A DNA stretch of 61,910 bases, the filler included, from Basidiobolus ranarum (taxonomy: Eukaryota), in assembly GCA_040143965.1 (NCBI GenBank). It is 18 parts of 18 records of this genome, joined end to end, with 100 filler letters (N's around TTAATTAATTAA, not from the genome) between each part and the next. Parts side by side here need not be neighbours in the genome. Positions count along the whole stretch, not along the records: positions 34,528 to 37,869 come from JASJQH010009431.1; 17 more parts are not named here. One strand, 5' to 3'. The position numbers were made by a program, and so were the translations under genes. Below are positions 3,362-50,159 of this stretch, piece by piece (the stretch's first letter is position 1; each line of letters opens with the position of its first letter). The notes under the pieces are model-generated. The model made no database searches, was not told the DNA's origin, and saw only the letters and a program-made list of their open reading frames with translations.

Positions 3362-3461
3362 NNNNNNNNNNNNNNNNNNNNNNNNNNNNNNNNNNNNNNN
3401 NNNNNTTAATTAATTAANNNNNNNNNNNNNNNNNNNNNNNNNNNNNNNNNNNNNNNNNNNN
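3362..3461. other. Artificial contig linker (N-run + TTAATTAATTAA + N-run), first of 17
   Basis: The same 100-bp spacer with stops in all six frames recurs about every 3.45 kb. Flanking contigs decrease from 3361 to 3329 bp. Confidence 0.98.
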
Positions 3462-17287: not shown

Positions 17288-17469
17288 TTTGAGGTGATTT
17301 GGAGAAGATTTGAGAAAATAGTGAAAATTGGTAAAAGTGATCTAATTGATATTTCTATCAATTAGAGCAATAAACACACATTTTTGAATGACAGAATTGG
17401 GTACTAAATATTCAGAATATGAGTTTACTAATTACTGAATAATGAATTGCTATTTATCTAATTTCATCA
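17288..17469 (-). mobile_element. Partial copia LTR (family B)
   Basis: Reverse complement of the 5' half of the LTRs at 20050 and 40430. Confidence 0.8.
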
Positions 17470-24192: not shown

Positions 24193-24490
24193 CCAGAAAT
24201 AAAGCATTTATACTTTTTGGTGGAAATACAGAAAACTAACACTGGGGTTGTGTTCAGAACATCTGTGGGAGTAAAATGAGCTATCTTTGGGGCAATTTGG
24301 ATGTGTTTGAAATTTCCAATATGGAATTGCTAATTCTCACATTATTCACAAATATATATAATATATGTTCCGATTTTCAGCTAAGTAATATTTGACTTGG
24401 TATTGTTAACTAACTTATATGTGATATATGAAATAGTTAGGTGTATAAAGATAGAGATAATAAATATGATAAAGACAATAAACTTCAACA
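24193..24490 (-). mobile_element. LTR-like repeat (family C)
   Basis: Inverted copy of 27193 to about 27490, with a TGTT terminus. Confidence 0.65.
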
Positions 24491-24589
24491 TAAATATGAT
24501 CTAAAAAGGTTGGCTATGGATATTTCAGGGTAACTTTAAAAGCTATGACCTACATACTCTATAATACCAAGCTTTCTTAGTTAACCAAG

Positions 24590-25198
24590 CCCAGGGATTT
24601 TTTATTTGAGGAATATGAAATATGTTTGCCCAATTTGGCTTCAGAAGAAGACAAAAAACTATTTTTCCCAAACTAATCTTGTAAATCAATTTGAATCAAA
24701 ACTACAAAGAAAATAGCATTCTGGTGGACTCTTAAACTGATATTCTGCCTACAGAAGTGACCAATATTCTGCCAGAAGTTGCAGGATCTTTATCCCTGAC
24801 AAGAGGTCAAATTAGATCAGAAAATGCTCTGATTATTATACCCTTGAGTCCCAATAATGGGCCCATGCCTGCCCAGCTCAGGTACATGAACCCCAGACTG
24901 TAAAAGAGGCCCTTAATGACCCTCACACAAAATTTTGGATATCTGCAATGGCTGATGAGTACCAGGCTTTGTTTAATAATCAAACTTGTATTTTAACCAA
25001 TTTACATGATGATAGCAAATTAGTTAGATGCCATTGAGGATTTGAAGGTAAATTCAGCTTGGATGGCAACATAGAAAGATACAAGGCTAGACCAGTATTC
25101 AGTGATTACTCCTAAACAGCAGGAATAGATTATATAAAAGCTTTGGCTCCTGTAGCAAAGTTTGACTCAATTAGATTAATTTTGGCGTTTCAGCTACA
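24590..25198 (+). pseudogene. Copia pol remnant (start of reverse transcriptase, RVT_2)
   Basis: EPQTVKEAL...WISAMADEYQAL...ERYKAR...GIDY...APVAKFDSIRLILA, with internal stops. Interrupted by a CACTA end. Confidence 0.85.
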
Positions 25199-25821
25199 CC
25201 ATAACAGAAATTTGAGGATTGTTATTTTAGGAGAGCCATTACAATTTTAATCCATTTTGGATTGACTTTTTACTTACTATCATACAATTGTCTGGTCAGA
25301 TTTGATTTTAGTCAATTTTTTCAATTTCAAAAGGGGAATTTCAAGATATCACAAAATAGGTGCATGTGATTGGCTACAATCCCAGAGAACTATGGATCAA
25401 CACATGTAAAAAAAACATAACTCAAATTTTTTACATCTACCCCTTCAATGCTAATTTGTCAACTTTGAATTCCCTAGCTTCTTTGATATATTCTCCCAAA
25501 TATTTTACTAGAGTTTTTTATACACAAGCCCTGACAGAAATTTGAGGATTGTTATTTTTGGAAAACAATCACAATTTTAATCCATTTTGGATTGACTGTT
25601 TACTTACCATCACACAATTGTCAAGTGATATTTGATTTTAATATATTTTTTAGGTTTCAGGAGTGAAATTTCAAGATCTTAAAAAAAGTAGCACATGATT
25701 GGCTACAATCTCCAACAACTATGGATCAACAAATGTGCAAGAAATGTAACTCAAATTTTACACATTTACCGCTTGAATGCTAATTTGTCATCTTCAAAAT
25801 TGCTAGTTTCTTTGATACATT
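25199..25821 (+). mobile_element. Two tandem/nested CACTA-type left ends (starting at 25199 and 25529)
   Basis: Both begin CC(C/A)T(A/G)ACAGAAATTTGAGGATTG. The same sequence occurs at 47701 and inverted at 38630 and 41505. Confidence 0.75.
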
Positions 25822-27192
25822 AGACTTGTTCCATTGGACCAGGTCAGATTGTGCCACTCAATCCAGTCTGCCATCACACCATTGGGCAGGATCTGTCAAT
25901 TACCATGGCTAGGTCCTATAACACTTGATTGGACACTATAAGGAACAATATGGGACTATATGACCACAATTAGACACAATGACTTTTTTGGAGATATCAT
26001 GCCTGCCCATATCAAGTTACCCAATTTAGTATTGCCCAATTAAGATTTTGGGTAATTGACACAGCTAGTTCATCCCATAGTATGTAATTTACCCACTACT
26101 GAATGTGTAACAAAAACAATTTATACTGTTACTTACCTAATCAAATGTATAACCAAGAGATTCACATATTTTTAGGCGAATCATTTGTCCATCACTAACA
26201 CAATATCCTGATTTTCAATTGGGCCCTATGGCTCCTGCCTTGTGAAATACCAGTAGCTTTGGCGCACTGGTGACAAATCACAGCACTTGATGCTGGATCA
26301 ATCTGCAGTATGATAGTAATGATCAGGATTGCTTGATTCTTCATTGTTAGATCAGCAAATTATTCATTCAATCATTTAGGCTTCTAATTGAGTGAGAATG
26401 TGAATGGATTGAGCCATATCAAGCCAGTATAGCTGCACAAGCTTTTTATCAACAGACATTTTTTATTTAATTGTAGTGGAATTGCTTGTGGTAATAAGCT
26501 TTCATTGATTTTTTTGATATATGACAATTTGATGCTATCTGTGTTTCATAATGACATAAGCAATCATGATCCAACTAAAGCAATTTATGCTATATTTAAG
26601 TGCAATCCATATCAATTTAGCATAATATGCTAAACAGTAAAGAAAGGATAATGTAAGTATTAACCAGAGCATTCAGCAGTTGCCCAGGTTAGAAGTAGTA
26701 CATATTGATTTGCTTCTGTTATTTTTATTGTCTCCTTGATATTTCCATGGAAGGAACTTTGCTTGAATCTCTGCAATGAGTTGATTGGTTTCATCTTGTT
26801 AAAGTTCCTCTACCTTGGCCAGCATGAGTTGTAGCTTGAGGTCAATGCACTGTGGTATGCATTGGCTTGTCTGGTCTAGTTTGAGGTTTGTTTGTATCTA
26901 CAATATCTTTTTCAGATTTGGAGCCATCACTTAAAGGCTCAACCAGCCATTGCCACTGGCATGCAGTTCTACAAATTCACCTGGAATGTCTCACTTGAGG
27001 TTTGTGCTTTACAGTTATTGATTCTTCAACCATGGTAGAAGCTTATATCTTATAACTGGCCATGACCATGGTTGCATGGCAGTATGTGTTGGAGTGAGTT
27101 GTCTACCTTGAGGTTTGTGTTTGGCAGTTCTTGCCTCTTTAACCATGGCAGAAGCTTCATCTCTATTGACTGGCTGTGGTAACATGGCAATA
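25822..27192 (+). mobile_element. Left arm of an IS5/Harbinger-like element
   Basis: Starts AGACTTGTTCCATT, the same TIR as at 40708, 47989 and 37985. Homologous to 17470-19004. Confidence 0.65.
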
Positions 27193-27540
27193 TGTTCAAG
27201 TTTATTGTCTTTATCACATTTGTTATATCTATCTTCATACACCTAACTATTTCATATATCACATATAAGTTAGTTAACATTACATAGTCAAATATCACTT
27301 AGCTGAAAATTGGAACATATATTACTTATATATGTGAATAATGTGAGAATTAGCAATTCCATATTGGAAATTTCAAACTTGTCCAAATTACCCCAAAGTT
27401 AGCTCATTTTACTCCCAAAGATGTTCTGAACACAACCCCAGTGTTAGTTTTCTGTACTTCCACCAAAAAGTATAAATGCTTTATTTCTGAACAATAAACA
27501 ATTATCTCACAAAGCTATTCACAACTCCACTTGTCTAAAG
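27193..27540 (+). mobile_element. LTR-like repeat (family C)
   Basis: Starts TGTTCAAG. Close inverted copy of 24193-24490. Confidence 0.65.
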
Positions 27541-34427: not shown

Positions 34428-34581
34428 NNNNNNNNNNNNNNNNNNNNNNNNNNNNNNNNNNNNNNNNNNNNTTAATTAATTAANNNNNNNNNNNNNNNNN
34501 NNNNNNNNNNNNNNNNNNNNNNNNNNNAGAAACTCTACTAACTGTACTTTGGTCTTTTTGAGTTGAGGATTAATTTGAATA

Positions 34582-34797
34582 GAATAATATAATAATTCAC
34601 GCTCAGCTATCTTGACACAATCAGGTACAAATAACCGCTCTCAAAGCTTCCATCCCCGAGAGGCTTCAGCTAAGAGAGTAGTCAAAAGGTAGACTCCCGC
34701 TAGTGGCATCGCAATATCATCAGCGCGTGATATGTATATTATTTGTAATTGCAGTCTTAGGTTATAACTAAGACGTAAGGTTTCATGGTTGTCGATG
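34582..34797 (-). ncRNA. Putative box C/D-like RNA gene, copy 1 (core 34597-34730)
   Basis: Terminal stem TCACGC/GCGTGA, box C TGATGA, box D CTGA, two internal hairpins. Four differences from copy 2 over 216 nt. Confidence 0.65.
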
Positions 34798-35146
34798 GCT
34801 CCATATTTATGGATATATAGTTACTGTGGGAGGTGGTAGATCATTGGTATGATGAGGAATTTTTCATTTTTTTCCCCTTAAAACCAAATGATACAAAGAT
34901 AATGATATCGATCGAGAGTTTTGTGAAACCTGACTTTTTGGTATACTCATGGTGAATTGATTCCTCATACTATTTTTTATTCAAATTTCAAGGAATTTTT
35001 AGAAGAAAGAATATATATTACACATGATAGAAAGGAGGGGTTAGAGAGAGGGGAGAATCTAAGGGGAACAAAGGAGTTGTACATTTTTACTATTTGAAAG
35101 ATGTAACTGAAACGAGTTTAGCAGAGAGTACACAGGGTGGAATTTC

Positions 35147-36556
35147 CTAAATTACAATCAGCAAAATGTTAGTGAAAATTGGAATGAAAATAGTGAAGTG
35201 ATTAAGGGATTTACTTGATTTATTGTGAACATTGGGATTTTTTCTTTCTCCATTTATCGTGTGTTCTCGTGCATGTATGTGATGATTAAAAAAGCGGGAT
35301 ATACTTGAACGTTCAGATTTAACATCATGTTGAGAGGTGGTTTCTCCGTAGGTAGAACGGGTTAATTTGTCAACTCCTCCTATCTTGGTTCCGCGTAATC
35401 TAGGAATAATTCCTTGAACTTCCTCGGTATCCGATATATCATCGGATTCGGAAGGAGACTCACTAGAGTCATCATTCTGATTATAGCGCGAACGTAGCCA
35501 TCGGTTACATGGTCCACTCTTACTAAGCTCGCTCACCTTGAAACCATAAATGCGCGGTGTGTACGTGTTGACTTTAAAATGAGTATAGATGCTTGGATTG
35601 AAAGTCATGAAAAACAAATGGGCAAACGTAGCACCAAAGAAGGCACCTAAATGAATTAATATAAGTATCCGAGATGAACGAATATAAAGTGCCTATATTA
35701 CCATCAAGATCCTGGAACCGAGAGCTAGGTGGTGTATAGATATCTAGACAATTTGGACAGTATAATCGTACAGGTTCAATGCCCAGTGAGTCGGATCTGC
35801 CTGTTGGAACTACTGCTACACCGTTACAATAGTATCTTGGGCAATCCCCAAAATCTCTGTGATCATATTTGTTCGCCTATAAGAAGATTGTACAAAATAG
35901 CGTTAATGTCATTGTACAGAAGCAATGCCTGCTGAGTATGTTATCCAAGGATAAAGAAAGAACCAAATTTCCTACCATCTCGTTCATACCCTGGCGAGTC
36001 AATATGTATCTCTGATGAATCAAGCCATAAAGTCTTTCGGCCGACGATTCAATAAGACTAGTATCAGCTCCGGAGTATTTACGCTCTGAATTAAACCAAT
36101 AATTAGATGTTTTGATCAACAAGCTGTATTACACATACACGAACCTGGCTCGATATCTAAAATCATCTCCAAAGCTTCCTGATAAAAAGGCACGGTAGAA
36201 CCTAAACCAGTAAAGTTGAAATCGTCCTCCAAGAAGTTATCAGCCACCTCTACCAAATACTCTTTTCCGGGAAGGGAGCAAAACCAAGTGACCCAAGAGA
36301 TTTTTTCGTGGTCAGAATCGTGTGCGGAATCTGTAGTGACTTTATATGAGATAAATGATTAGTCGATAATAAGGGAGAGTTGGTAATCAAGAGAAAGTTC
36401 TTTTGAAGTTCATTATTGTTCATTTATTCGCGTTTCTTTATCTAATTGGTACAAAGGGTAGTTTATATTTGAAGGTTATGAGAGATTGAACTCACCAGAA
36501 TATTCTTCACCATTTACAGGTACTTTAGAGGATCCCTGAGTTTTTACGGGATCCAT
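35147..36556 (-). CDS. CKB1: Casein kinase II regulatory (beta) subunit, multi-exon, with long C-terminal extension
   Basis: SWVTWFCSLPGKEYLVEVADNFLEDDFNFTGL, SAERLYGLIHQRYILT, FGDCPRYYC, LYCPNC, DGAFFG and YTPRIYGFKV. Confidence 0.92.
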
Positions 36557-36887
36557 ATTTGAGAATATTGGTCAAGATATAATGGATATTCTGTAAAGGA
36601 AAATTAGTAACTAGGTTGATTTACAACCTTTTTAGTTGGCAAGTGATGTTCTTACAGCGTAGATATAAACTGAAGTATGTGGAAGCGGAAGCGGAAGGTC
36701 ACGCGTGCTTTGGATGTAAAGATCAAGTAAATAACAATCCCTTTTTTTTGTATGATCAGATCCGTCAATAATCAGAAATTAATATTACCTGTTCGTATAT
36801 TAAAATACTAGCTGAAACAATCAATTCAAACGCCACAGGTTGGAGTTTGACTCAAAATAAACACTTTCAGAGATATATATTCTCTAG

Positions 36888-36915
36888 TCCCATGACCTTC
36901 GGAATCCCATAAATA
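36888..36915 (+). promoter_or_regulatory. Putative upstream element (TCCCA) and TATA-like box (ATAAATA) of the C/D-like RNA gene
   Basis: Both motifs recur at the same 21-nt offset in all three copies (36888/36909, 37633/37654, and 34831/34810 on the minus strand), while the spacer sequence differs. Confidence 0.55.
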
Positions 36916-36921
36916 TTGAAT

Positions 36922-37137
36922 CATCGACATCTATGAAACCTCACGTCTTAGTTATAACCTAAGACTGCAATTACAAATAATATACATATCACGCGCTGAT
37001 GATATTGCGATGCCACTAGCGGGAGTCTAACTTTTGACTACTCTCTTAGCTGAAGCCTCTCGGGGATGGAAGCTTTGAGAGCGGTTATTTGTACCTGATT
37101 GTGTCAAGATAGCTGAGCGTGAATTATTATATTATTC
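36922..37137 (+). ncRNA. Putative box C/D-like RNA gene, copy 2 (core 36989-37122)
   Basis: Same features as copy 1. The 5' extension contains the hairpin GTCTTAG-TTATAAC-CTAAGAC. Confidence 0.65.
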
Positions 37138-37666
37138 CACTCATATAATCTTAAAATAACAACATTTTATTCATAGTTTTTGTTTTTCAAGCACGATGGG
37201 AATTCAGAACTCGCGGTCTATTTAGTAAAGACTTGCTGCTGGAATTGCCTAACTAGCGACAATACAAAGATTATGTAAGAAATCAAGCAAATATTTGCTT
37301 ATTCTATTAAATTTATCTAGATTTAAAGATATCTCATCACTAATCATAATAATATATAATATTTGAAAATACTGATGAAATGTTAGAGATGTGTCACATT
37401 TTAACTTTGTTCTATTTAAGTAACAATAGCATACAAACAACACTTACCAAGGTACCAAAATAGGCAAGTACTTCCCAACAATATAGATCTGGTGTCTCTC
37501 AATTGTCGTTTAGATAGAATATTTTTGAAGTCTATCTCAAGTCTTGGGCTTTTTTCGGATCTATGATCTGTAGTAGTTGAAAGAAAACAAAATGATCCGC
37601 TTAATGGTGAAAAAAAAAAGATTATTCGTAACTCCCATAGATGCATACAATCAATAAATAGTCGAC

Positions 37667-37869
37667 CACCGACAACCATGAAACCTCACGTCTTAGTTAT
37701 AACCTAAGACTGCAATTACAAATAATATACATATTACGCGCTGTTGATATTGCGATGCCACTAGCGGGACGCTATCTTTTGCCTACTCTCTTAGATGTAG
37801 CCTCTCGGGGATTGAAGCTTTGAGTGCAGTTATTTGTAACTGATTGTGTCAAGATAGCTGAGCGTGTAT
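37667..37869 (+). ncRNA. Diverged copy 3 of the C/D-like RNA gene (possible pseudogene)
   Basis: Collinear with copies 1 and 2, but box C is TGTTGA, the internal CTGA is lost and the hairpins carry several substitutions. Confidence 0.5.
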
Positions 37870-37985
37870 NNNNNNNNNNNNNNNNNNNNNNNNNNNNNNN
37901 NNNNNNNNNNNNNTTAATTAATTAANNNNNNNNNNNNNNNNNNNNNNNNNNNNNNNNNNNNNNNNNNNNCCAATGGAACAAGTCT

Positions 37986-38630
37986 ATTCAATACTAAAGT
38001 ACTCACTGTAAAGCTAATGGATATCACTACCAGATTGTGAAAAGTCAAGGTTTCTTTGAGAACATCTATGATCATGCATTTGCATTGGCTCTGGATGGTT
38101 TCTTACTAAACAAATATACCACTAGAATGGCTTGCTGGCCAATAATTTTAACTAACTTAAATCTTCCTGCTTCTGAACAATGTAAGAGTCATAATATTTT
38201 GATACTATCCATCATATCTGGACCTAAATCACTAGTGCTTATAGATAGCTTCTTAGAGCCTTTGATTGCAGAACTTGAACGGTTATGTAATGGGGCTCAG
38301 ATGGGTGAATATTTTATTAAAGCTGATAGCATTGTATGTACTGGTGACACTCCTGCCATCAGTAAGTAGGGATTTTCAAAGGTGACAAATTGGTGTTCCA
38401 GTGGTAAATGTGTAAGATTTGAGTTATGTTTTTTGCACATGTATTGATCCATAGTTCTCTGAGATTGTAGCCTATCTTGTGCAACTAATTTGGGAGATCT
38501 TGAAATTTCACTCCTGAAATTGAAAAAATTGATTAAAATCAGATCTAACTTGATGACTTCATGATGGAAAGTGAATGGTCAGTCCAAATGGATTAAAATT
38601 GTGACAGCTTGCCTACAATTTCTGTTAGGG
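37986..38630. mobile_element. CACTA transposase fragment (+, to 38369) followed by an inverted CACTA left end
   Basis: ALALDGF...CWPIILTNLNLP...IISGPKS...DSFLEPLIAEL...GDTPA (Tnp2/Transposase_21-type). TGTTAGGG terminus at 38630. Confidence 0.85.
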
Positions 38631-40707
38631 TGCAGAGATGTGATTTTTGATGAAAAAGCTAATTTTTTTCCTCAAATCACCGTTCTTGATCCTAGAAACT
38701 CAATCAGCAATAGTCAGGAAGTGTCTGACAGAATTTCAGCTATATCTGAGCCTTATTCAACAGACATCTCAGTCCTAATTACACAAGAGGATGCATCAGG
38801 CCCCACAAGATCATCTAGAGGAATAAATAAGCCGGGGAACTAGTGGAACACTTCCAATGATGATGTATATGTTTATGCAGCATTCAGTGACAACCTAAAG
38901 ACTCTGTATCAAGCTCTGGAGTGTACAGAATCAAAATATGGCCAACAGCAATATCTGGTGATTCTTCTTCACTGCAAGACAGGAGAACATGGGTTTTGAG
39001 TCCTCTACAATCAGAGGGAAAGCCAATAGGTTGCAAACCAGTCCACAAATGAAAAAACTAAGCTGATGGAACCATAAAAGATACAAAGCAAGACTAATTG
39101 CAAAAGATTATTCCCTGACTACAAGAGTGGATATAAATGAAACTTTTGCTCTAATAGCTAAGTTTAGCTCCATAGATCAATTCTGGTACTCTCAGCAGCC
39201 TATAATGTTGATTTACATCAAATATAATGTAAGAACAACTTCTTTGAGTGGAAATCCAAAAGAAGATATTTATATGAAGTAACCAGATCAATTTATTGCC
39301 CAAAACACACTATATGGTCTGTAAACTGCAAAAATTAGTATATAGCATATTTGTAATTATTAGAATTCCAGAAATGAACAGTAGATCACACTATCTACAT
39401 CAAGACAACCAGATATAAGATCCTTCACTTAGTACTATATGTGGCTGACTTGATCATAGCCACAAATGATCTAGAAGCACTCAATCAGACAAAAAGCAGC
39501 TTATCAAGCCAATTTCAGATGACTGATATGGGTGAATTAAATCATTTTCTTAGAATCCAAAGCAAGCAAGATAAACCTAATCAGAAAATCAAGCTCAATC
39601 AGTCTAAAAACATCTTAGACATTCAAATATACTTCAATGTGGGGTAGAGCACCCAGTATGAACATCAGTGGATTTCAATGTGAAATTAATCAAATTTTCA
39701 TCTGATTAGGCCCAAAATGACTCAAATCAACACTAGGAGTTCCCTTTTCAGTCCATGGTGGGTAGGTTAATGTAGGTAGTGGTTGGAACACATCCAGACA
39801 TTGCTGCAGCATTGGGAGCTGTCACCTAATATCTCAAAAATCCATTATCTGAGCACAAACCTGCAGTAGAACAAATATTCAAGAATTTTTGAGGAACTGT
39901 AGATCCAATTCTGGAAAACTCTGCCACTCCTGATGCACAAATTTTGAAGGCTCCAGTGATGCAAACTGGGGAAGAAACCTTGATGATAGAATATCAGCAA
40001 CAGGGCAGACTTTTCTCTAATGAAATGTAGTCGTAACTTGGAATATTAAGAATAACCAACCATGGCACTTCCCACTACAGAAACAGAGTATATGGCTGCC
40101 TCTGATACTACACAAGAAACAATGTGGATAAGGAAGGTAATTACAGACTTATGATACATGCAAAAATGTGCTATTAGTGTATTTGAACATAATCAAAGTT
40201 GTATTTGCTTAGCTAAAAACTCTCCATTCCATGTTAAAACAAATCATATAGATATTGGGCATCATTTTGTTGGAGAAACAATAAATAATGATATAGTTGA
40301 ACTTGTCTATTGCCTGACTGAAGAAATGATTGCTGATATCTTAACCATACCTTTATCCTGAGCACAATATGAATTATTCAGATATAAGTTAAGTTTAATA
40401 GAAAGAGAAAGTAATATGTTCAGGTGGAATGTTGAAATTAGGTAAAGAGCAACCCAATATTAGTAGGCAGTTTATTCATATTCTGATCTTTAGCACTCAA
40501 TTGTGCCATTCAAAATCATATGTTTATTGCTCTAATTCATAGAAATATCAACTGGATCACTTTTACTAATTTTCACTATTTTTTTCAAAACATCTCTTAA
40601 TCACCTCAAATTTTCACCCATGCTTAACAGGCATGTTTGTTATGCTCTAAGCATGTCCAATAGTCTTATTTCTTATTAAACTGTAAATAGGACATAGTCA
40701 ACTCAAT
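38631..40707 (+). mobile_element. Degenerate Ty1/copia 3' half: RT, RNase H and 3' LTR (family B, 40430-40707)
   Basis: RDVIFDE, RYKARLIAK, LYVADLII, MTDMGELNHFL, ALPTTETEYMA, KTNHIDIGHHFV and EMIADILT motifs with stops and frameshifts. A purine tract precedes TGTTGAAATT. Confidence 0.9.
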
Positions 40708-41309
40708 AGACTTGTTCCATTTTGTTGAGCCAGATTAGGCCAGCTAAAAATTGTACCAGCACAAATTGGCATGATGTTATTTACCAATTTGGAAACAGTT
40801 TCTTTTACTTCTGTGGTATATTTAGGAAAAGTACTTTTAGACATTATTGCACATTCAAAAGATGATGAAACCTTTATTCATTGTGTCTTAAGTCTAGAGC
40901 TCTCAATGGATATCTTTGTGTATGAATGTATTGGGAAATAATCAAGATTTTGACTACTTTGCTAAACTTTGATTGAGGCCCACAAAATGATTTTCCTCCA
41001 TACTTTCCTGCTACAATGTTGTATCTCTTTAGGAAACCAAAGCTATGTTCTACTCTTACTCTAAAGTGGGAAAAAATGTCATTATAAAGCTTTTGCCTCT
41101 CTGTGAGTATCCCTCTTCTGTGCCTTTTGTTAGCTGTGACACATCCTAGCCTTTTGCATTCTTCCCCAAAATATGCCAAATCAGCCATAGTCTTCTCAAG
41201 TTTTACAAATGGTGCATTCCTCTCAACCCAAAGCCTTTTGTCATGGTGTCTCCCTGGATGTGGCCCACTAAACCAAATGATGTTTCCTTCCAAATCTGTC
41301 AAAGCCTGG
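40708..41309 (-). mobile_element. IS5/ISL2-PIF/Harbinger-type element, right end, with DDE_Tnp_4 transposase C-terminus (40874-41309)
   Basis: G..HD, ADLAY.G, LT..QK.YN and RVRVEH.FG.LKR motifs. The TIR AGACTTGTTCCATT is inserted at an AAT in LTR B. Confidence 0.88.
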
Positions 41310-41505
41310 NNNNNNNNNNNNNNNNNNNNNNNNNNNNNNNNNNNNNNNNNNNNTTAATTAATTAANNNNNNNNNNNNNNNNNNNNNNNNNNNNNNNNNNN
41401 NNNNNNNNNTTGACAATGGTAAAACAGTATGTAAACAGTATTTCCCCAATGAATTAAAATTGTGACAGTTTTCCTATGATGACAATCCTCAATTTTGTGT
41501 TAGGG

Positions 41506-43300
41506 TTTGCTGATACATTGTTAATCAGATTAGCATATGATCATACTGATGATTTCACAAAGTGCATCATTTCATTGCAGGAGCACTTCAAATGGGAACT
41601 CTTGGAATGTATAGCAAGGGCCTATAATCTCTAAGCATTGCAAAAGATTCAGCAGGGAATGTATTGAGTACCAGCATATGTTCAGTCTATCTTCTTTAAA
41701 CCTTTGATAAAGTTTTTCATATCTATTTACAAAATCTTTGCACAGTTGCTGTATCTGCCTGAGATCTGCCTATGTGCGTTGATGCCATAAGAATGGATCA
41801 ACAATATCAACAAGCAACTTGCAATGTTGCCAATACTTATCAGGCAGAAATCTTTTTAAGATTCCACTTGAATACATATAAATCCAATACTTTCAGTCTT
41901 TGCATTTGAATAAATGCCTAGATGAATGGATATTGATGGGAATCCTGAGAAAATATGATGGTATCAAGACATTTTCAAGCATTTTCCCAATTGACTCAAA
42001 TTTTGTTCCTATCTTGAATGGCTCATTCATATTGAATTTTCCACTATAAAATTGAGTAAGTAGTATTGGAATGTTGTTGAATAGTAAGTGTATAGTGCCT
42101 CATGGGAAGCTCTGGCTCCAGCTGATCCCCTTTAGCAATATAATCTTAGGCCTATGACTAATACCAAGTTTGTTGTTAGGCTGACTATTTGGTGATTTGA
42201 TATCAGTGATCATGTTGAAATATGACCAGACTCTTGATGGTAGAATCATGGAGTTTAGTTTGGTATTTGGATAGTAGTAAGGTGCATTCCTGATTGAGTA
42301 AACTGCATTGATTTGACAAAATCTACAGCAAGAGAGTGCATTGTGCCCACAAAAACCTCCAGGCTTACTGATGACAGGAGTGTCCCCAATACATACAATG
42401 ATATTAGCTTTGATCAAATATTCACCTATCTGAGCCCCACTAGAAAACCATTCAAATTACGCAATCAAAGGCTTCAAGAAGCTATGTGTAAGCACTGGTG
42501 ATTTAGGTCCAGATATGATGGATGTTATCATAATAATGTAACCCTTATACTGTTCAGAAGGAGAAAGATTTAAGTCAATTAAGCTTATTGGCCAGCAAGC
42601 CTTTCCAATGGTATATTTGTTTAATGAGAAACCATCCAGAGCCAATGCAATTGCATAATCCTGCTTGTTTTTAAAGACACCTTGACTTCTCAGATTCTGG
42701 TAGTGATATCCATCAAGTATGTTGGTAATACCATCAACTTTATAATTACTACTTTGGTAATCAAACAAACATCTATAACTTGGTGATTTCATCAAAACTT
42801 AAGACAGGGAAGCAACAGTATGTAAGCCAAACATGAACAATGTTTACCTGATTCAATGATTGCAAATTGTGTGCAAACAGTACATGATTTCTGGTTTTTC
42901 AGATCCTTAGTGAAAGCCAAACAATTATTTGACATGTAAGTAGCTTAATTACTGAAGGATTATAAGTCATATGATTGACAAGTGTTTTCCACTTGTACCA
43001 GGTCTGTGGTAAGCAACAGTTGCCAATCAACTGTGGTAAAAGTGTAGGAAAACCAATAAACACCTGGTTGCTAAGAATGGATTGAACTCTCTACTTCTCA
43101 ATAATCAAAGCTGCTTTCTTTATGGTTAGTGTCACAAGTGGACCAATGCTTGCCAATAACAAAGAGTCCATAACAAAACTGTTGTCTTCTTCAACTTCTG
43201 ATATACAACCTTCAGTACAGGAATAACCAAGGTCAACATCAAGCAGCATGTCCTCAAACTTGTCTGGACTTACTTGTTCCACCAAAGTTGCATTTCTACC
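41506..43300 (-). pseudogene. Degenerate CACTA (Tnp2) transposase; an inverted CACTA left end lies at 41410-41505
   Basis: ALALDGF, GDTP.ISK.GGFCGHNALSCCRFC, SFP and FLPDKYWQH motifs across broken frames. Confidence 0.85.
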
Positions 43301-43793
43301 TATATTATTTTGATTATATAAATGTGGTAACTAAAATGGTATCTTGAATTTTGGTAGTTTTACCTAAACTTTGAGGCAAAGCACAGGCAGTGGAAGCAGT
43401 GAGCAAAACTAAAGTAATTTTGTGCACTTATTACTGTTGACATTCACCTGGCTTTGTGCTACTGGTAGCTTTATATGGTGACTGGGCTTGTGATTAATTT
43501 TTCTATGAAGCCTCCAGCTTTCATAGCACAAAAATCTGTGACAATAATAGCAGGGCTTCTTTAAATGTTTGTGATGCATCATGAGAAGGATATTGTAAAA
43601 AGAAAACACCTCCTATGTAAGGGTGATATATTGGGTATAGCCCATCAAAATCATCAGCTGATTCTGAGATGGTGTTACAGATGATTTGTCAGGAAATTTA
43701 TAAGATATTTCTGGTAATGGATGGCACTTTTGGTTTATCATAAACTGCTTCTAAGCAACTTCATTACACGAAGTTAAACATCCAAAAATTTCA

Positions 43794-44747
43794 ATGCCAT
43801 TCAAAAAGCATTCAAAATCTAAATCAAAATTGGCTTCAAAGCAAAAGCCTGCTGGCACAAAAGGAAAAAAACCAGCAAGAACAAAGGACATAATTGATGA
43901 GCAGTCAAGTAATCCACTATCCATTTTGGAAGGCACTAACATGGCAGAAACTAACTCAAGTAATGATAAAGCATTATTCAATTTACCAGATGTTTCCCTT
44001 TCTAACAATAGTGTAAGTGAAGAGATTGTAATCCCCCAATTGTTTAGTAAATCAATAGTTGAGCAAAGTTCAACTGAAATACCATCAAGACCATCAACTT
44101 CCAAAATGGCTACTTTGCCAACTAGTGAACAACCCTCCATAGAAATTTGGGATAAAATTATTATTACAAGGGAATTGCAGGCAGAACACCATAACGATGT
44201 GCATGCAATCATAAGTAAAAACTACAAAGTTGCTATACAAGCAATGCAAGTAGCAACACCACAATGTTGCAAATAATGCAGCATTTGGAAGCAACTAGTC
44301 TACAGTCAGAGAGTCACTCAACAATGATACAAGACCTTCAGAATGCTGTACTTGAGCTACAGCAACATACTCACCATCTATCCATTCTCATATGGGTTTT
44401 CAATCAATCCCACACCATACATATGAACATCATCATGACAATCTAGCAGAGCAGATATTGGTTGGACCATTAAGCATACACAATGACCCAGAATTGCTTG
44501 GGCATAATAAAGTTAAAATCTCATGAGAAAACTGGCTAACCAAAGGACTCTGAATGTCAGAGCTGCCATCACTTGCTCTGATGATGAGTGGCCAAACATT
44601 TTGCAAGCTGCATGGAATCTTGCCCAATATTACCTTGATTTGAGCTAATGATGGAAAAACCAAAAACCCGGTGTTACTCTGAGCATTCGTGACTTATTTC
44701 AGGTAGCTTATCCCAGGCTTTTGCAAGCAAAGGGGAATTGGGCTTGT
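43794..44747 (+). pseudogene. Divergent second ORF, probably of the CACTA element (basic N-terminus, coiled-coil-like), disrupted
   Basis: A K-rich ORF continues through stops. It is CpG-depleted like the adjacent transposase. Confidence 0.4.
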
Positions 44748-44847
44748 NNNNNNNNNNNNNNNNNNNNNNNNNNNNNNNNNNNNNNNNNNNNTTAATTAAT
44801 TAANNNNNNNNNNNNNNNNNNNNNNNNNNNNNNNNNNNNNNNNNNNN

Positions 44848-46337
44848 CCTTACGGAAATTTGCCAAAATACAAGAGCTTATTCTCATTGTGAATGATAAC
44901 AAGAGTCAGCTATTTGCCAAGTGTCAGTGCTATTCAAAATCTCAGATGTTTAGCAATTTTTCCACTATTAGTTTACTGGTACACAGTATTATTGTTTTAG
45001 CCATGGGGTAATCTATTCCAGCAATGACACATCTACATGTGGCAGGACATTTGTTGACTGCAAGTTGGGGATATATTGGCAGAATTCTTTAAGGAAATTT
45101 GCCAAAATCCAACATCTTATTCTCATTCTGAATGGTAACAAGAGTCAGCTATTTGCCAAGTATCAATGCTATTCCAAATTTCAGATGTTTAGCAATTTTT
45201 CCACTGTTAGTTTGCTGGTAAAGCATACTGATGTTGTTTAGTTATGTCTAATCAGTCAAGTATGTGCATATGTAGAGACTTAACACAACAAGATTCTTGT
45301 ATTTTTTGATTCTCATTATGGCTGGAATACAAAGCCTAAAATATCTAAATAAAGGCATGCATAATAAATTGTATTCTTATAGCAGTAAACCCAGTAATTT
45401 ACCATTCAAAAAATATATTTTTGCAAAAATTGACGGATATTGAATAATGCATGCCAATTTGAGGATCAATATTTTTACATGTATGAATACCATTAAAATA
45501 CTGTCAAGAAACCGCCATCATATCATCAAAATCCTGGCAGAATGCAAGCTACCAATATTGTGATGGTTCTCTTACAGTCTTGCTCTTTTGGAGGGTGGAT
45601 CCAATCCAGATCAAATCAATTTTATTTTGTTAGGGTAATATAATGATATTTCTAGAAAAATCTGCAAAACAGACTAGTTGGTGAGATAGATCAAGATATG
45701 CACTAATATCATTTTTGCCATGGGGTAATATATTCAAGTATTGACATATCTACTTGTGGCAGGACATTTATTGAGTGCAGGTTGGGGATAGTTTTTGTGT
45801 ATTTTTTATGTCAATATGCAAAATCCTGCTTACTGTGTTTGTAGATGGTAACAGCAGCCAGCTATTTGCCAAGTGTCAGTGCTGTTCAAAATATCAGATG
45901 TTTAGCAATCTTTCCACCATTAGTTTGCTAGTAAAGCATATTGCTGTTGTTGAGTTATGTCTGATCAGTCAAGCATGTGCATATGTAGAGACTGAACACA
46001 ATGTGATTCTTGTATTTTTTGATTCTCATTTTGTCTGGAATACAAAGCCTAAAAAATCTAAAATTGGCATGCATATTAATTGGAGCACTTACAGTAGTAA
46101 ATGCAGTAATTTGCAATCTGAAAATTAGTTTTTTGCTAAAATTGTTGGAAATCTAATAACAAATGACAAGTATGAGGATCACTATTTTGCCATAAAAATA
46201 CTGTCAAGAAGGCACTATCCCACCATAAAAATCCCTGGCCAAATGCAAACCAGCAATATTGTGATGGTTTTCTGATGGTTTTGCAATTCAGAAGGGTGGA
46301 TCCAATCCTGATCAAATCAATTCTATTCTTGTCAGGG
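44848..46337 (+). mobile_element. Tandem nested CACTA 3' ends (termini at 45635 and 46337)
   Basis: Repeated unit of about 650 bp homologous to 49460-50113, ending TGTTAGGG or TGTCAGGG. Confidence 0.8.
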
Positions 46338-47700
46338 AATGCAAAAACCAGTGTGCATATTGAAAAGAGCCCTTTGTGGGAAGGTTAATATACTCTGGAT
46401 CCTGCTTAACCCATTACATTACTTCCATCACCAAACTTGCTGATCTGTTGTTAATCAGACTAGCTTACATTAATACTGACATTCCCACACATAGCATCAT
46501 TTCACAGCAGGTGCACTCTGTGGGGAACTCCCTAAATGTATAGTGATGGCCTACAGTCCCTAAGCCTTGTAAAAGATACAGCCAGGAATATATAGAATAC
46601 TGGCATCAATTCAGTCTATCTTATTTAAAGCCTTAATAAAATATTTCATATCCAATTACAAAATCTTTTCACAGTTTCACTATCTGCCTGAGATCTGCCA
46701 ATGTGAGGTAATGCCATACAAGTATATTAACAACATCCACAAATAACTCCCAATGTTGCCAATACTTTTCAGGCAGAAATCTTTTCAAGACTCCACTTGA
46801 ATATATATAAAATTCAATACGTCCTGTTTTTGCATTTGAATAAATGTGTTGCTGAGTGGATATTAATGAGAGTCCTGGAAAATTATGAAGGTATCTTGAT
46901 GTTTTCAAGCATCTTGCTAGTCAATTCCAACTTTGATACTATCTTGATTGGCTCATTTATATTGAAGTTTCCACCCTATAGCTGAGTAAGTAGTATTGGA
47001 ATGTTGTTGAATAGTAAGTGGATAGTGCCTAATGGGAAGCTCCAGCTCCAGCTGATCCCCTTTAGAAATATTATCTTAGGCTTATGGCTAATATCAAGTT
47101 TGATGTTAGACTTACTATTTGGTGAATTCATGTCAGTGAGCATGTTCAGATCTGACTCTGCTCTTGACAGTAAAATCATGGAGTTTGTGTTGTATTTGGA
47201 TAGTGGTAATGTGTATGCCTGATAGAGTAAGCTATGTTGATTTGATAAAATGTACAACTAGAAAGTGCATTATGCTTGCAAAAACCTCCATGTTTATGGA
47301 TGGCAGGAGGGTCACCAATAACTACAGTGATATAAGCTTTAGAAAGATATTTACCCATCTGAACCACATTAGATAACCATTCAAATTCTGCAATCAAAGG
47401 CTCCAAGAAGCTATGTAAACACACTGGTTATTTAGAACCAGATATGGTGTATAGTATCAAAATATTACAATTCTTATACCATTAAGATGTAGAAAGATTC
47501 AAGTTAATGAGAAATATTGGCAAGCAAGTCTTTCTAACCATATATTTGTTTAGGGAGAAACCATCCAGAGCCAATGCAAATGCATGATGATAAGTATTAT
47601 CAATGAACCCTTGCCTTTTCAGATTCTGGTAGTGATATCCATCAAGCATACTGATAAACCATCTTTAGAGTGAGTACTTTGGTATTGGATCAATGATCTG
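46338..47700 (-). pseudogene. Degenerate CACTA transposase
   Basis: SFLEPLIAEF, GDPPAI..GGFC.HNALSSCTF, SFPLGTIHLLFNNI and LKRFLPEKYWQHWELFV. Confidence 0.85.
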
Positions 47701-48184
47701 CCCTAACAAAAATTTGAGGATTGTTATTGTAGGAAAACCATTGTGGTTTTAATTCATTTGGGATTGAGTGTTTCCTTTCCATCATAAAATTGTCATGTTA
47801 GATTGGATGTTAATCAATTTTTGCAGTTTCAGGAGTGAAATTTCAAGATCTTTCAAAATAGTTGCACATGATTGGCTAAAATGTCAGAGAACTATGGAAC
47901 AACATATGTGCAAAAAACTTAATTCAAATTTAAATATTTATTACTTGAATGCTAATTTGTGACCTTCAAAATTCCTAGTTTATATAATAGACTTGTTGCA
48001 TTTTATTGAGCCAGATCAAGCCAGCTAAAAAGTGTGCCAGCACAAATTGGCATGATTGGGCACTATCCAGCATGATGTTATTTACCATTTTGGAAACAGT
48101 TTATTTTACTTATGTGGTATGTTTAAGAAAAGTACTTTTAGACATTATTGCACATTCAAAAGATAATGAAAGCTTTATTCATAG
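47701..48184. mobile_element. CACTA left end (47701-47988) interrupted by the right end of the Harbinger-like element (47989-48184)
   Basis: Starts CCCTAACA. AGACTTGTTGCATT onward is homologous to 40708-40880. Confidence 0.8.
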
Positions 48185-48284: not shown

Positions 48285-50113
48285 GGGGTTTAGATGCATG
48301 AATATCTTGTTAAAGCTAAAATCAATTTATGTATTGGTGATGATCCTGTTATCAGTAAACTTGGAGGTTTTTGCAGGCCCAATGCACTATCTTGCTGTAG
48401 ATTTTGTCAAATCAATGGAATTTACACTAACAGGATTACACATTACTACTATCCAAATACAACACTAAACTTCATGATTTTACCATCAAGAGCTAGGTCA
48501 GATATCAACATGATCACTAATATCAATTCACCAAATACTCAGTCTAACATCAAACTTGGTATTAGGGGCAAGCCTGATATTATATTGCTCAAGGGGATCA
48601 GCTGGAGACAGAGCTTCCCATCAGGCACTATGCACTTACTATTCAATAACATTCTGATACAACTTACTCAGCTATATGGTGGAAAATTCAATATGAGTGA
48701 GCCATTTGAGATTGGATTAAAGTTTGAATTAATTGGTAAAATGCTTGAAAACATCAAGATACCATCACATTTGACCAGGACTCCCATCAATATCCACTAA
48801 TCTAGGCATTTATTCAAATGCAAAGACTGGAAATATTGGATTTGTATATATTCAAGTGGAATTTTGAAGTGATTTCTGCCTGATAAGTAATGGCAACATT
48901 TGGAGTTGTTTGCTGATATTGTTGATATATTCTTACTGCATCAACTCACATTGGCAGATCTCAGGCAGATACAGCAATTGGCCAAAGATTTTGTAATTGG
49001 ATATGAAAAACTTTATTACAGGTTTAAAGAAGACAGACTGAATCTATGCTAGTATTCAATACATTGCCTGCTGCATCTTTCACAATGCTTAGAGATTATA
49101 GGCCCTTGCTATACACTCTGGGAGTTACCAATGGAGCGCACCTGTGATGAAATGATGCTCTGTGTGAAAATGTCAGTATTACCATATGCTAATCTGGTTA
49201 GCAATGTACCAGCAAAAGCAGTGATGGATGTAATGCAATGGGTATTGGGGACTCCAGAGTATATTAACCTGCCAACCAAGGGCCTTTTTCAATGCACCAA
49301 TGGGTTTTCAGATTGTTTGAGCACAATAGCAGGAACAAAGCTCAATCCATGGACACAGAGTAAGTAGCTTTATTATTAGACTAATTTGCTTGTGTGATAA
49401 TCTGATGGTATTTTTAGGAAAGCTGCAATAGAGACTTCTTGGTGAGATAGATTGAGATATGCAGTATCATTGTTTTAGCCATGAGGTAATCTATTCTAGC
49501 AATGACACAAGTACTTGTGGCAGCACATTTGTTGACTTCAAGTTGGGAATATATTGGCTGAATTCTTTACAGAAATTTGCAAAAATCCAAGAGCTTATTC
49601 CATTCCAAATGGTAACAAGAGTCAGCTATTTGCCAAGTCTCAGTGCTATCCAAAATTTCAGATGTTTAGCAATTTTTGCACCATTAGTTTGCTGGTAATG
49701 CCTATTGATGTTGTTGAGTTATGTCTAATCAGTCAAGTATGTGCATATGTAGAGACTAAACACAATGAGATTCTTGTATTTTTTGATTTGCATTATGGCT
49801 GGAATACAAACCTAAAATATTTAAATAAAGGCATGCATATTAATTCAAATTCCTACAGCAGTAAACCCAGTAATATGATATTCAAAATTTATATTTTTGC
49901 AAAAAATGCTGGATATTGGATAACACATGGCAAATTTGAGGATCAATATTTTAACATGTATGAATACTGTGAGGATACCATCAAGAAACCACCGTCACAC
50001 CATCAAAATCCCTGGCAGAATGCAAGCCAACAATAATGTGACAGTTCTCTGATGGTTATGCTATTTTGAAGGGTGGATCTGATCCGGACAAATCAATTTT
50101 ATCTTTGTTAGGG
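48285..50113 (+). mobile_element. CACTA element 3' half with degenerate transposase, ending TGTTAGGG
   Basis: GGFCRPNALSCCRFC, SFP.GTMHLLFNNI and IHCLLHL..CLRD..PCYT.WE.PMER motifs. Confidence 0.88.
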
Positions 50114-50159
50114 TATAGCTAGCAAGGAAAACCTTACACCTTATGGTGTAAAGCAGAAA

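Follow-up and report, generated by a model that had tools for sequence, protein, structure and literature searches.

The window analysed here, the whole 61,910-nt stretch of Basidiobolus ranarum DNA, is a chain of 18 unrelated contigs (~3.3 kb) joined by linkers, and the usable context of the locus is therefore a single contig of 3,342 bp (window positions 34528-37869). This contig carries all three copies of a unit of ~240 nt, together with a CK2 beta gene of at least five exons located between copies 1 and 2 (35147..36571, minus strand). The gene was identified by Pfam CK_II_beta matches on four ORFs, which cover profile positions 1-182, and by a 100% match of the protein to the casein kinase 2 regulatory subunit of Basidiobolus ranarum, confirming the proposal in an earlier note on this DNA that the unit flanks CK2 beta. 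Repeat search and blastn agreed in placing copy 1 at 34573-34812 on the minus strand, copy 2 at 36907-37146 on the plus strand (240 nt, 96% identity to copy 1) and copy 3 at 37654-37869 on the plus strand (216 nt, 91%), where it is ended by the contig boundary. The three copies reported previously are nested inside these coordinates, and no further copy was detected in the window's other 17 contigs (58 kb).

To define the conserved unit we used an ungapped three-way comparison of copies 1, 2 and 3, given here in copy 2 coordinates. The upstream flank (36850-36887) shows random-level identity, with 5 of 38 positions invariant. Within this otherwise randomised region TCCCA is invariant at 5/5 positions, and is followed by a 15-nt spacer of fixed length (1/15 invariant) and by ATAAATA (7/7 invariant). 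The leader block at 36933-36988 is invariant at 55 of 56 positions and the 134-nt core at 121 of 134, in keeping with the earlier observation that some 55 nt upstream of the core are equally conserved. The 3' flank (37123-37137) is identical at 15/15 positions in copies 1 and 2, and identity decays beyond it. This footprint is the pattern of a promoter followed by a transcribed RNA, and argues against a young repeat or MITE.

In copy 2 the putative distal promoter element is TCCCAT (36888..36893, plus strand; TCCCAY across the three copies), and the putative TATA-like element is ATAAATA (36909..36915, plus strand). The pair TCCCAY-N15-ATAAATA occurs three times in the window, each time upstream of a copy, against 0.09 occurrences expected. 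We presume that the TCCCAYRG motif resembles the plant snRNA upstream element. The 5' arm described below has its first paired base at 36941, 32 nt after the start of ATAAATA, and the conserved 5' block is therefore most likely part of the predicted transcript. From repeat, C/D motif, motif pair and three-way comparison, the complete unit of copy 1 spans 34582..34831 on the minus strand (coordinates derived from copy 2 via x -> 71719-x), with TCCCAC at 34826-34831, ATAAATA at 34804-34810, a predicted RNA at 34597-34778 containing box C (TGATGA, 34717-34722) and box D (34603-34606), and the 3' flank at 34582-34596. Copy 3 occupies 37633..37869 on the plus strand, with the motif pair at 37633-37660 and a predicted RNA at 37686-37867.

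Motif and fold analysis defined a C/D-like core of 134 nt in copy 2 (36989..37122, plus strand), identical to that of copy 1 at 133 of 134 positions; the sole difference, at 37030, lies in a hairpin loop, as had been noted. The core is closed by the terminal stem TCACGC/GCGTGA (36989-36994/37117-37122), enclosing box C (CTGATGA, 36996-37002) and box D (CTGA, 37113-37116), and this previously described arrangement is present in copies 1 and 2. Two hairpins reported from inside the core, AGTC/GACT (37024-37039) and CTCTCGGGG/CTTTGAGAG (37057-37081), were also found. The second of these was picked up again by a bacterial promoter/terminator scan, which is irrelevant to a eukaryote. The earlier note had listed one internal CTGA; the element is present, but copies 1 and 2 each have two (37050-37053 and 37095 in copy 2), and a C'-like TGATTG lies at 37096-37101. 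The sequence AACUUUUGA (37029-37037), which we take to resemble an Sm/LSm site, varies among the copies at 37030.

Among 20,000 dinucleotide shuffles of the unit, 46 contained the combination of TGATGA, CTGA and a stem of at least 6 bp, and across the whole window there are three C/D motifs with such a stem, two of them being copies 1 and 2. The terminal stem comprises 6 bp with one bulged G; taking the three copies together, 94.4% of cells retain it. In the RNA, copies 1 and 2 would carry UGAUGA and CUGA, but because box C has a C where the consensus calls for R, the strict pattern RTGATGA is unmatched. The core alone folds no better than its shuffles (z = -0.88). The conserved 3' flank of copy 2, ATTATTATATTATTC (37123..37137, plus strand), can pair with 36976-36988 in an external stem of nine A-U pairs that extends the terminal stem. 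The strength of this external stem was reached by 11/3,000 shuffles for copy 2 and 76/3,000 for copy 1, and all 56 AT-rich 18-mers taken from other parts of the contig fell short of it.

Copies 1 and 2 are intact and copy 3 is degenerate, as judged from their motifs. Copy 3 differs from copy 2 by 13 substitutions and stops at the contig end, 2 nt past the terminal stem. Its box C has changed from TGATGA to TGTTGA (37742-37747; UGUUGA in the RNA), its first internal CTGA reads ATGT, and its terminal stem reads TTACGC/GCGTGT, so the box C, first internal CTGA and stem ascribed to the unit stand for copies 1 and 2 and are altered in copy 3. Copy 3 retains the promoter motifs, the leader and both arms of the helix described below. 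Three of its substitutions fall in the segment complementary to LSU rRNA, each hitting a predicted pair. A functional copy 3 would mean that neither box C nor the LSU pairing is essential.

The copy 2 leader, or 5' arm (36941..36988, plus strand), contains the GTCTTAG/CTAAGAC hairpin recognised earlier, here located at 36945-36965, and its 36976-36988 portion contributes to the external stem. Alternatively, the leader can pair with the 3' third of the core (37084-37122) through 34 bp (30 Watson-Crick and 4 G-U; -28.5 kcal/mol), an energy reached by 2 of 2,000 shuffles. This pairing buries box D, as does the most stable fold of the RNA (-55.9 against -48.3 kcal/mol). It also qualifies the earlier statement that the unit has neither TIR nor TSD: no TSD was found, but leader and core 3' third constitute a 34-bp imperfect inverted repeat.

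Database searches returned no family for the unit. The Rfam search proposed in the earlier note gave only two tRNAs at the gathering score across the whole window. On the contig, at E values up to 10, the matches were all far below thresholds: one to snoZ105 scored 23.3 bits and lies outside the unit, one to DUF805b scored 13.8 bits and runs antisense within copy 3, and the third was to TMV_UPD-PK3. The 251-nt unit alone matched only sR39 (11.2 bits) at E values up to 10. An orthologue search with a 20-mer from the most conserved stretch found no occurrence in metagenome and viral contigs. A two-anchor pattern recovered 40 metagenome loci, which were rejected as chance matches, with stems of at most 3 bp and no likeness beyond the anchors. 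When the 59-codon sense-strand frame was used as a query for spurious ORFs, zero candidates were found within 32-104 aa. The main text of a fungal snoRNAome survey, in the portion available, mentions no Entomophthoromycotina or Zoopagomycota (PMC5824354), and the corresponding portion of a fungal U3 survey names no member of Zoopagomycota (PMC5832005). Our literature search on snoRNAs in these taxa found only an unrelated springtail paper and a paper on introns. The snoRNA repertoires of Zoopagomycota are uncharted.

We investigated pairing of the predicted RNA with rRNA using stand-in fungal SSU, 5.8S and LSU sequences throughout, rather than those of B. ranarum itself. The LR11 primer sequence had no match in viral contigs. 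One segment of copy 2 (37075..37106, plus strand) is complementary to LSU nt 1-37 of the stand-in fungi and is a candidate antisense or placeholder element. Its 37075-37100 part forms 24 bp with LSU 9-37, plus GUCA/UGAC, and the pairing of 37075-37106 with the LSU 5' end has the top z-score (-3.53) among 251 rRNA windows, the next being -2.24. By raw energy the same window ranks 29th of 506. Shuffles reached this pairing in 8 of 2,000 cases, whether RNA or target was shuffled (p about 0.004, or about 0.02 after correction); as p of about 0.004 is the chance expectation for the best of 251 windows, the weight of this value comes from the site having been named in advance. Of six rRNA sites so named, only the LSU 5' end stands out (0/300 shuffles), the others being at chance (U13 site at the 18S 3' end, 59; U14 sites in 18S domains A and B, 47 and 178; U3 site at the 18S 5' end, 167; 5.8S 3' end, 196; each out of 300 shuffles). 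The 36-nt segment binds LSU with a predicted -36.1 kcal/mol, against -23.0 kcal/mol for the natural 5.8S/LSU duplex, and the pairing persists with eight fungal-type LSU variants.

Duplexes of other segments with rRNA were equalled or bettered by 10/40 shuffles for the leader, 19/40 for the region after box C, 3/40 for the centre and 18/40 for the D-guide. The suggestion that the 5' extension is an rRNA-binding arm in the style of U3, U8 or U13 was thus not upheld: the leader is at chance and pairs with the RNA's own 3' part, and the predicted LSU 5'-end contact is made by an internal segment. Nor did the ATTGTGTC/GACACAAU target put forward with it survive, since GACACAA and GACACAAU are absent from the stand-in rRNA. 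Against stand-in SSU, 5.8S and LSU, the canonical guides were equalled by 152, 158 and 117 of 200 shuffled guides. No antisense element of at least 10 nt at box D or D', with its target opposite the fifth position, was found against these rRNAs.

Taken as a whole, the unit is probably a functional small-RNA gene, and we put the chance that its RNA is a C/D snoRNA slightly above even. Our main reading, to which we assign a probability of about 0.5, is that the unit represents a lineage-specific, independently transcribed box C/D snoRNA gene family of B. ranarum, and probably a non-guide one. On sequence grounds, the unit is an orphan C/D-like gene with a predicted transcript. The earlier proposal of a new, independently transcribed snoRNA class draws support from the promoter footprint, the non-random C/D motif and the lack of an Rfam family, but the word class is too strong.

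The most serious competitor, which we nevertheless consider unlikely, is another undescribed structured ncRNA in which the long terminal helix is the native fold, with a 5' arm (36941-36983) and a 3' arm (37084-37122) closing a branched central domain, and in which the C/D resemblance is fortuitous or vestigial. The 34-bp helix rarely matched by shuffles, and its status as the minimum-free-energy fold, speak for this reading, as does its position, beginning at the transcript start predicted from the ATAAATA spacing and ending at the last base of the core. The helix favours the plus strand (-28.5, compared with -19.4 kcal/mol) because it contains four G-U pairs and no A-C mismatch, and is kept in the three copies (-26.3, -28.5 and -27.1 kcal/mol). 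Substitutions in copy 3 avoid its arms (2 at the 82 arm positions, 11 at the other 100; p = 0.04), and the box C change of that copy sits in a bulge of the long-helix fold. However, the C/D motif with its stem is itself improbable by chance (46/20,000, as above), the conserved 3' flank lies outside the helix and is accounted for by the C/D fold, and the shape matches no known family; covariation across three copies is uninformative for both folds and does not separate them. The same inverted repeat could be taken as the mark of a non-genic repeat lacking any RNA function, whether foldback/MITE-like or produced by local segmental duplication. Such an origin would also fit the two ends of the contig, one of them 45 nt past copy 1 and the other within copy 3, as in assemblies that break at repeats, and a unit with no Rfam match, orthologue or expression evidence. 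We regard it as quite improbable: the TCCCA and ATAAATA islands at fixed spacing in randomised flanks, with identity decaying gradually at both ends, indicate selection rather than recent insertion. Conservation passes the inverted repeat by at least 50 nt upstream and by 15 nt downstream, so that in place of the terminal inverted repeats and TSDs that characterise a MITE there is a repeat internal to the conserved unit, with no TSD at either candidate boundary. The CpG observed/expected ratio is 1.0 for the unit but 0.04-0.05 on five contigs, of which some carry decayed Transposase_21 ORFs; this bears out the earlier remark that the unit keeps CpGs lost in this genome's transposons. The lack of a copy in the other 58 kb of the window is weak evidence in the same direction.

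Two further explanations would accept a C/D RNA and assign it a known function. A conventional 2'-O-methylation guide, which we consider about as improbable as the repeat, could use the 11-nt stretch separating the C'-like UGAUUG from box D to direct modification of a C located in LSU domain II (stand-in position ~1199, ...ACAUCUUGACA...). This site offers nine contiguous Watson-Crick pairs in the canonical register k3-k11 and is identical in four of the five stand-in LSUs aligned. However, 123 of 3,000 shuffled guides equal this 9-nt run, the best Watson-Crick run obtained; the duplex would be disrupted by CATCTAGACA, the sequence present in the fifth LSU (L027); and the region upstream of the internal CTGA lacks any canonical Watson-Crick run. 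To our knowledge, no methylation is known in yeast at the site equivalent to LSU ~1199. A divergent copy of a known processing snoRNA (U3, U8, U13, U14 or snR190) would share the plan of an independent gene with a 5' extension, C/D boxes and no convincing methylation target. This is the least probable of the explanations weighed here: the 251-nt unit matches none of these families in Rfam at E values up to 10, the U13, U14, U3 and 5.8S 3'-end sites are at chance, and the snR190 box A and B targets give no signal. The U3 boxes given in the available part of the fungal survey (A' TACTY, A GYATCW, B AGYGA; PMC5832005) are absent or misplaced, with TACTY found in the unit only at 37039, in mid-core, and GYATCW and AGYGA absent from it. 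This agrees with the failure of the earlier note to find U3 box A, U14 domains A/B or the U13 guide.

Returning to the main reading of an independently transcribed, probably non-guide C/D snoRNA, we propose that the bipartite promoter (TCCCAY, 15-nt spacer, ATAAATA) would drive each gene, with transcription probably starting ~30 nt downstream of ATAAATA, near 36941. From such a start, the primary transcript would run from a leader of ~48 nt through the 134-nt C/D core into a short A/U-rich trailer. In a fold competent for snoRNP formation, the leader hairpin would form and the 3' part of the leader would pair with the trailer, extending the 6-bp terminal stem and thereby uniting box C with box D. 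The RNA is probably no conventional methylation guide, and the role we prefer is that of a placeholder or chaperone. Segment 37075-37106, whose ends resemble the 5.8S 3' terminus, would pair with the first ~37 nt of LSU rRNA and keep this site occupied until 5.8S pairs there, in line with the model for vertebrate U8 and with the principle demonstrated for yeast snR190. The leader may alternatively pair with the antisense segment and box D, masking both. That the small RNA is an LSU 5'-end placeholder is a tentative suggestion, with odds well short of even. More speculative still is the full model, in which Basidiobolus has evolved its own U8 counterpart: a ~182-nt C/D RNA under a TCCCAY and ATAAATA promoter, of which an internal segment would mimic the 5.8S 3' end and occupy the first ~37 nt of LSU during early pre-60S assembly, and switching between a leader-masked closed form (long helix) and an open form (k-turn and antisense).

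Expression would make this a lineage-specific addition to the C/D RNAs, transcribed independently and preceded by a clear promoter footprint; without expression, the finding reduces to a small local repeat. A genuine LSU pairing would be relevant to the way in which organisms without U8 prevent the 5.8S/25S junction from pairing, and would provide a second independent self-masked placeholder snoRNA besides snR190.

Comparison with known snoRNAs places the unit among several designs. Like U3, it is multi-copy and, as predicted, independently transcribed, with a 5' domain preceding a C/D-closed 3' domain. With the fungal C/D guides, as described in the available part of the snoRNAome survey (PMC5824354), it has in common a box C-like element, box D, a terminal stem, a D'-like CUGA, a degenerate C' and a size within the fungal range, but it differs in its long conserved leader and in having no antisense above chance against rRNA at a guide position. 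Saccharomyces cerevisiae snR190 is described in the part of the source available as a non-methylating C/D placeholder that occupies 25S sequences, including one to which 5.8S later pairs, and part of its antisense box A is tied up by an internal stem (PMC8536666). This stem parallels the proposed masking of the antisense segment by the leader of the unit. However, the targets of snR190 are H73 (domain V) and a domain I sequence that binds the 5' part of 5.8S; the unit gave z = -1.88 with a scattered duplex at the box A target (~25S 2350-2410), and z between -1.6 and +2.0 for the box B target, in domain I windows beyond nt 20. In addition, snR190 is expressed together with U14, whereas no U14 gene lies near the unit, which has no Rfam match to snR190. 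Vertebrate U8 (SNORD118) is modelled to pair with the LSU rRNA 5' end, so controlling 5.8S/28S pairing, and is stated to be unique to vertebrates, according to the available part of the source (PMC8993069). The unit matches the Rfam U8 model neither in sequence nor in structure, and its antisense is internal, just upstream of box D, whereas that of U8 is its 5'-most 15 nt. The two share several features: a box C/D plan, C/D-like in the unit, with the 5' end extended ahead of box C and with box D placed at the 3' end, and, as predicted for the unit, a promoter of their own; U8 is not a methylation guide and the unit has no convincing methylation target; and the predicted RNA of the unit carries a segment complementary to nt 1-37 of the stand-in LSU.

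The window consists of 18 length-sorted contigs of 3,330-3,361 bp separated by linkers of the form 44N-TTAATTAATTAA-44N. Adjoining contigs are unrelated, and 'synteny' across the linkers is meaningless. The real context of the repeated units is the contig at 34528-37869 alone (3,342 bp), from an early-diverging (zoopagomycete) fungus. This contig also carries a CK2beta gene on the minus strand, whose four ORFs span positions 1-182 of the Pfam profile and which is a 100% match to the casein kinase 2 regulatory subunit of Basidiobolus ranarum. A second B. ranarum CK2beta (P0002), encoded on a 9,980-bp contig, is 71% identical over the exon compared, and a B. meristosporus protein (P0003) showed 68% identity in the CK2beta comparison. 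As an earlier note on this DNA had claimed, the unit is present in three copies: copy 1 at 34573-34812 (-, 240 nt), copy 2 at 36907-37146 (+), with 96% identity to copy 1 over 240 nt, and copy 3 at 37654-37869 (+), with 91% identity over 216 nt and cut by the contig end. No further copies were present in the other 17 contigs. The contig starts (34528) 45 nt past copy 1 and ends (37869) 2 nt past the terminal stem of copy 3, as expected had the assembly been interrupted by additional copies of the unit.

The unit has kept its CpGs, as previously claimed, with an observed/expected ratio of 1.0 (0.87 for its contig) compared with 0.04-0.05 on five other contigs. Across the window this ratio is bimodal. 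It is 0.04-0.05 at 17288-20642, 24193-27540 and 37970-48184 (three contigs), less depleted at 48285-51619 (0.11) and 58582-61910 (0.22), and 0.5-0.87 on the remaining contigs, which have the same G+C content as the CpG-poor ones. Two of the five CpG-poor contigs bear decayed ORFs with fragments of Transposase_21 (tnp2), at 37998-38369 (+) and 42457-42798 (-). Together, the CpG loss and decayed tnp2 suggest methylation-driven or RIP-like C-to-T decay of B. ranarum repeats.

Conservation of the unit was analysed in a three-way alignment, ungapped from about 36880 on (coordinates of copy 2). Upstream, at 36850-36887, only 5 of 38 positions are invariant and pairwise identity (12-14/38) is at the random level. 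Downstream, the motif TCCCA is fully invariant (5/5), the 15-nt spacer that follows is not (1/15), and ATAAATA again is (7/7). Invariance is 8/17 at 36916-36932, 55/56 in the leader at 36933-36988, a conserved block which the earlier note had also recognised, and 121/134 in the core (36989-37122), where copies 1 and 2 agree at 133 of 134 positions. These two copies are also identical over 15/15 nt of 3' flank, with decay beyond. The window has exactly three instances of the composite motif TCCCAY-N15-ATAAATA, one per copy (expected 0.09; 0/100 shuffles reach three). Neutral sites between copies are saturated, yet a pair of short motifs has been retained together with its spacing and some 200 nt of downstream sequence; the alignment pattern is one of purifying selection on a putative promoter and transcribed region. 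A recent duplication or transposon insertion would show sharp edges and uniformly similar flanks, which is not the pattern here, and no target-site duplication is present at the unit, as had been stated. ATAAATA starts 32 nt upstream of 36941 and is a candidate TATA element, which would place transcript start near 36941 with the leader included; this supports the earlier proposal that the 5' block is part of the RNA. We put the probability that the unit is a functional small-RNA gene at roughly 0.8.

Copies 1 and 2 contain the terminal stem TCACGC/GCGTGA, CTGATGA, CTGA and two internal CTGAs. The stem, box C, box D and internal hairpins of the earlier description are all present in these copies, and their one core difference is indeed in a loop, at 37030. 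The description does not extend to copy 3, in which TGTTGA replaces box C and ATGT replaces the first internal CTGA, changes it had overlooked. Strict RTGATGA was not found in the unit, where the R position is C. Among 20,000 dinucleotide shuffles of the unit, 46 contained a TGATGA...CTGA pair with a closing stem of at least 6 bp. The window as a whole has three such pairs, two of them in copies 1 and 2. The third, at 11151-11373 (-), has a 6-bp stem, boxes 222 nt apart and no more than 7 nt in its best canonical Watson-Crick run to rRNA; it is probably due to chance.

The k-turn fold, in which the terminal stem joins box C and box D, is mutually exclusive with a long helix between leader positions 36941-36983 and 37084-37122, an arm that takes in the C'-like motif, box D together with its guide, and the terminal stem's 3' strand. 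This helix comprises 34 pairs, of which 30 are Watson-Crick and 4 are G-U, and is free of A-C mismatches. Its energy of -28.5 kcal/mol (null -13.2 +/- 3.1) is reached by 2/2,000 shuffles; the helix of the opposite strand has -19.4 kcal/mol. The earlier statement that the unit has no terminal inverted repeat needs qualifying, as the leader and the 3' part of the core form a long inverted repeat inside it. The long-helix fold is the minimum-free-energy fold of the 216-nt unit (-55.9 kcal/mol, z = -2.47), compared with -48.3 kcal/mol for the C/D-constrained fold, and the core alone is of ordinary stability (z = -0.88). When folded under the C/D constraint, the leader makes a 7-bp hairpin by itself, and 9 A-U pairs join the leader's 3' part to the 3' flank; this second pairing would explain why the flank is conserved. 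As good a pairing was reached by 11/3,000 shuffles for copy 2 and by 76/3,000 for copy 1, and by none of 56 AT-rich 18-mers from the rest of the contig. The two folds fit the three copies equally (96.2% and 97.8% of cells paired; 169 and 176 of 500 shuffles as good), with a single compensatory change, in a 4-bp hairpin. Copy 3, lacking box C and one internal CTGA, has kept both arms of the long helix, the promoter motifs and the full set of 56 leader positions. Its substitutions fall at 2/82 arm positions versus 11/100 central ones (p = 0.04), 11 of 13 are transversions, and three changes in the LSU-antisense segment (37075-37106 of copy 2) are all on predicted pairs. There are two ways to read copy 3: as a dead copy whose upstream part was repaired by gene conversion, or as an indication that the long helix is more important than the k-turn. 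On balance, we lean slightly towards the RNA being a C/D snoRNA.

Targets were sought in stand-in fungal rRNA (a full SSU, the 5.8S, and positions 1-2260 and 2270-3401 of the LSU model), which is not that of B. ranarum and was recovered, with standard primers as search patterns and Rfam annotation, from fungal rDNA contigs contaminating prokaryote assemblies. Eukaryotic rDNA contaminant contigs occur in many public bacterial assemblies and MAGs (rDNA loci L001-L063), and a single prokaryote assembly among the sources held about 30 short ITS-like contigs. For the 20 nt 5' of each of the three CTGAs, 152, 158 and 117 of 200 shuffled guides were as good. With Watson-Crick pairs only, the internal guide gave no run against this rRNA, and the box D guide gave a 9-nt run (k3-k11) to LSU ~1199, equalled by 123/3,000 shuffles, at a site that is the same in 4/5 stand-in LSUs and changed in the fifth. 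The GACACAAU target site proposed earlier was not found in the stand-in rRNA. As a methylation guide, the RNA is probably an orphan.

Six rRNA sites that define known processing snoRNAs were named beforehand and each compared with 300 shuffles. Shuffles were as good in 59 cases for the 18S 3' end (U13), 196 for the 5.8S 3' end, 47 and 178 for the U14 domain A and B sites, and 167 for the 18S 5' end (U3), and in none for the first 60 nt of LSU (U8). This last duplex is colinear, with RNA 37075-37100 pairing stand-in LSU 9-37 over 24 bp, including UACCUGAUU/GAUCAGGUA, and GUCA of the segment pairing UGAC at LSU 1-4. The LSU 5' window ranked 29/506 by raw energy. Scored against its own dinucleotide-shuffle null, it was the sole outlier (z = -3.53; runner-up -2.24; mean 0.18, sd 0.96) among 251 windows, two of the 253 having been dropped for N. 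Its energy was reached by 8/2,000 shuffles, whether RNA or target was shuffled; this p = 0.004 is at chance level for the best of 251 windows, and the weight of the result comes from the top window being among the six pre-named sites, for which the corrected value is about 0.02. The signal is suggestive, not conclusive. The 36-nt segment of copies 1 and 2 pairs stand-in LSU at -36.1 kcal/mol, and that of copy 3 at -26.6. With eight fungal-type variants of the LSU 5' end, which came from 17/59 loci, the segment gave -31.6 to -36.1, and with one divergent variant only -23.5; the natural 5.8S 3'-end/LSU 5'-end duplex was computed at -23.0. With CCUG at its start and GUCA at its end, the segment resembles the 5.8S 3' terminus, and their predicted LSU contacts are shared.

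At gathering score, Rfam identified only two tRNAs in the whole window, 1.5 kb apart on one contig (10591-10663 and 12137-12209, both +; 58.9 and 48.9 bits). At E up to 10, the Rfam check suggested earlier left the unit with no meaningful family match: its contig gave three sub-threshold matches, none meaningful, one of which, DUF805b (13.8 bits), was antisense inside copy 3, and the 251-nt unit alone matched only the boxes-only archaeal sR39 (11.2 bits). Adjoining the copy 1 promoter, 34844-34955 (+) weakly matched snoZ105 (23.3 bits, gathering 45, E = 0.97); it has AUGAUGA, GGUGA in place of box D and a pre-box segment whose Watson-Crick run to stand-in rRNA is only 7 nt, and is probably a chance candidate. 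Fungal U3 has boxes A' (TACTY), A (GYATCW) and B (AGYGA) (PMC5832005); the unit contains neither GYATCW, the box A reported missing, nor AGYGA, and its sole TACTY, at 37039, is misplaced. The main text of a fungal snoRNAome survey names no Entomophthoromycotina or Zoopagomycota (PMC5824354), and literature searches found nothing relevant on Basidiobolus and snoRNA, and only work on introns for snoRNA in early-diverging fungal phyla. Within the scope of these searches, the RNA has no earlier description.

We propose that the units are a lineage-specific family of independently transcribed box C/D snoRNA genes, two of them intact. The most likely role of the RNA would be as a placeholder that occupies the LSU 5' end ahead of its pairing with 5.8S, with a leader able to mask the antisense segment; we offer this role tentatively, as a possibility with the odds against it. 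The RNA belongs to neither the U8 nor the snR190 family, and the targets of the two snR190 boxes in stand-in rRNA gave no signal with it. U8 is described as unique to vertebrates, carries a TMG cap and is required for 5.8S/28S processing; its pairing has been modelled with the 28S 5' end, yet PARIS data indicate the 3' end (PMC8993069). The modelled U8 site corresponds to the LSU 5' end to which the unit's segment is complementary. In yeast, snR190 does not guide methylation but serves as a placeholder for a 25S sequence that partners 5.8S at a later stage, and an internal stem covers part of its antisense box (PMC8536666), much as the leader of the unit RNA could mask its own antisense segment.
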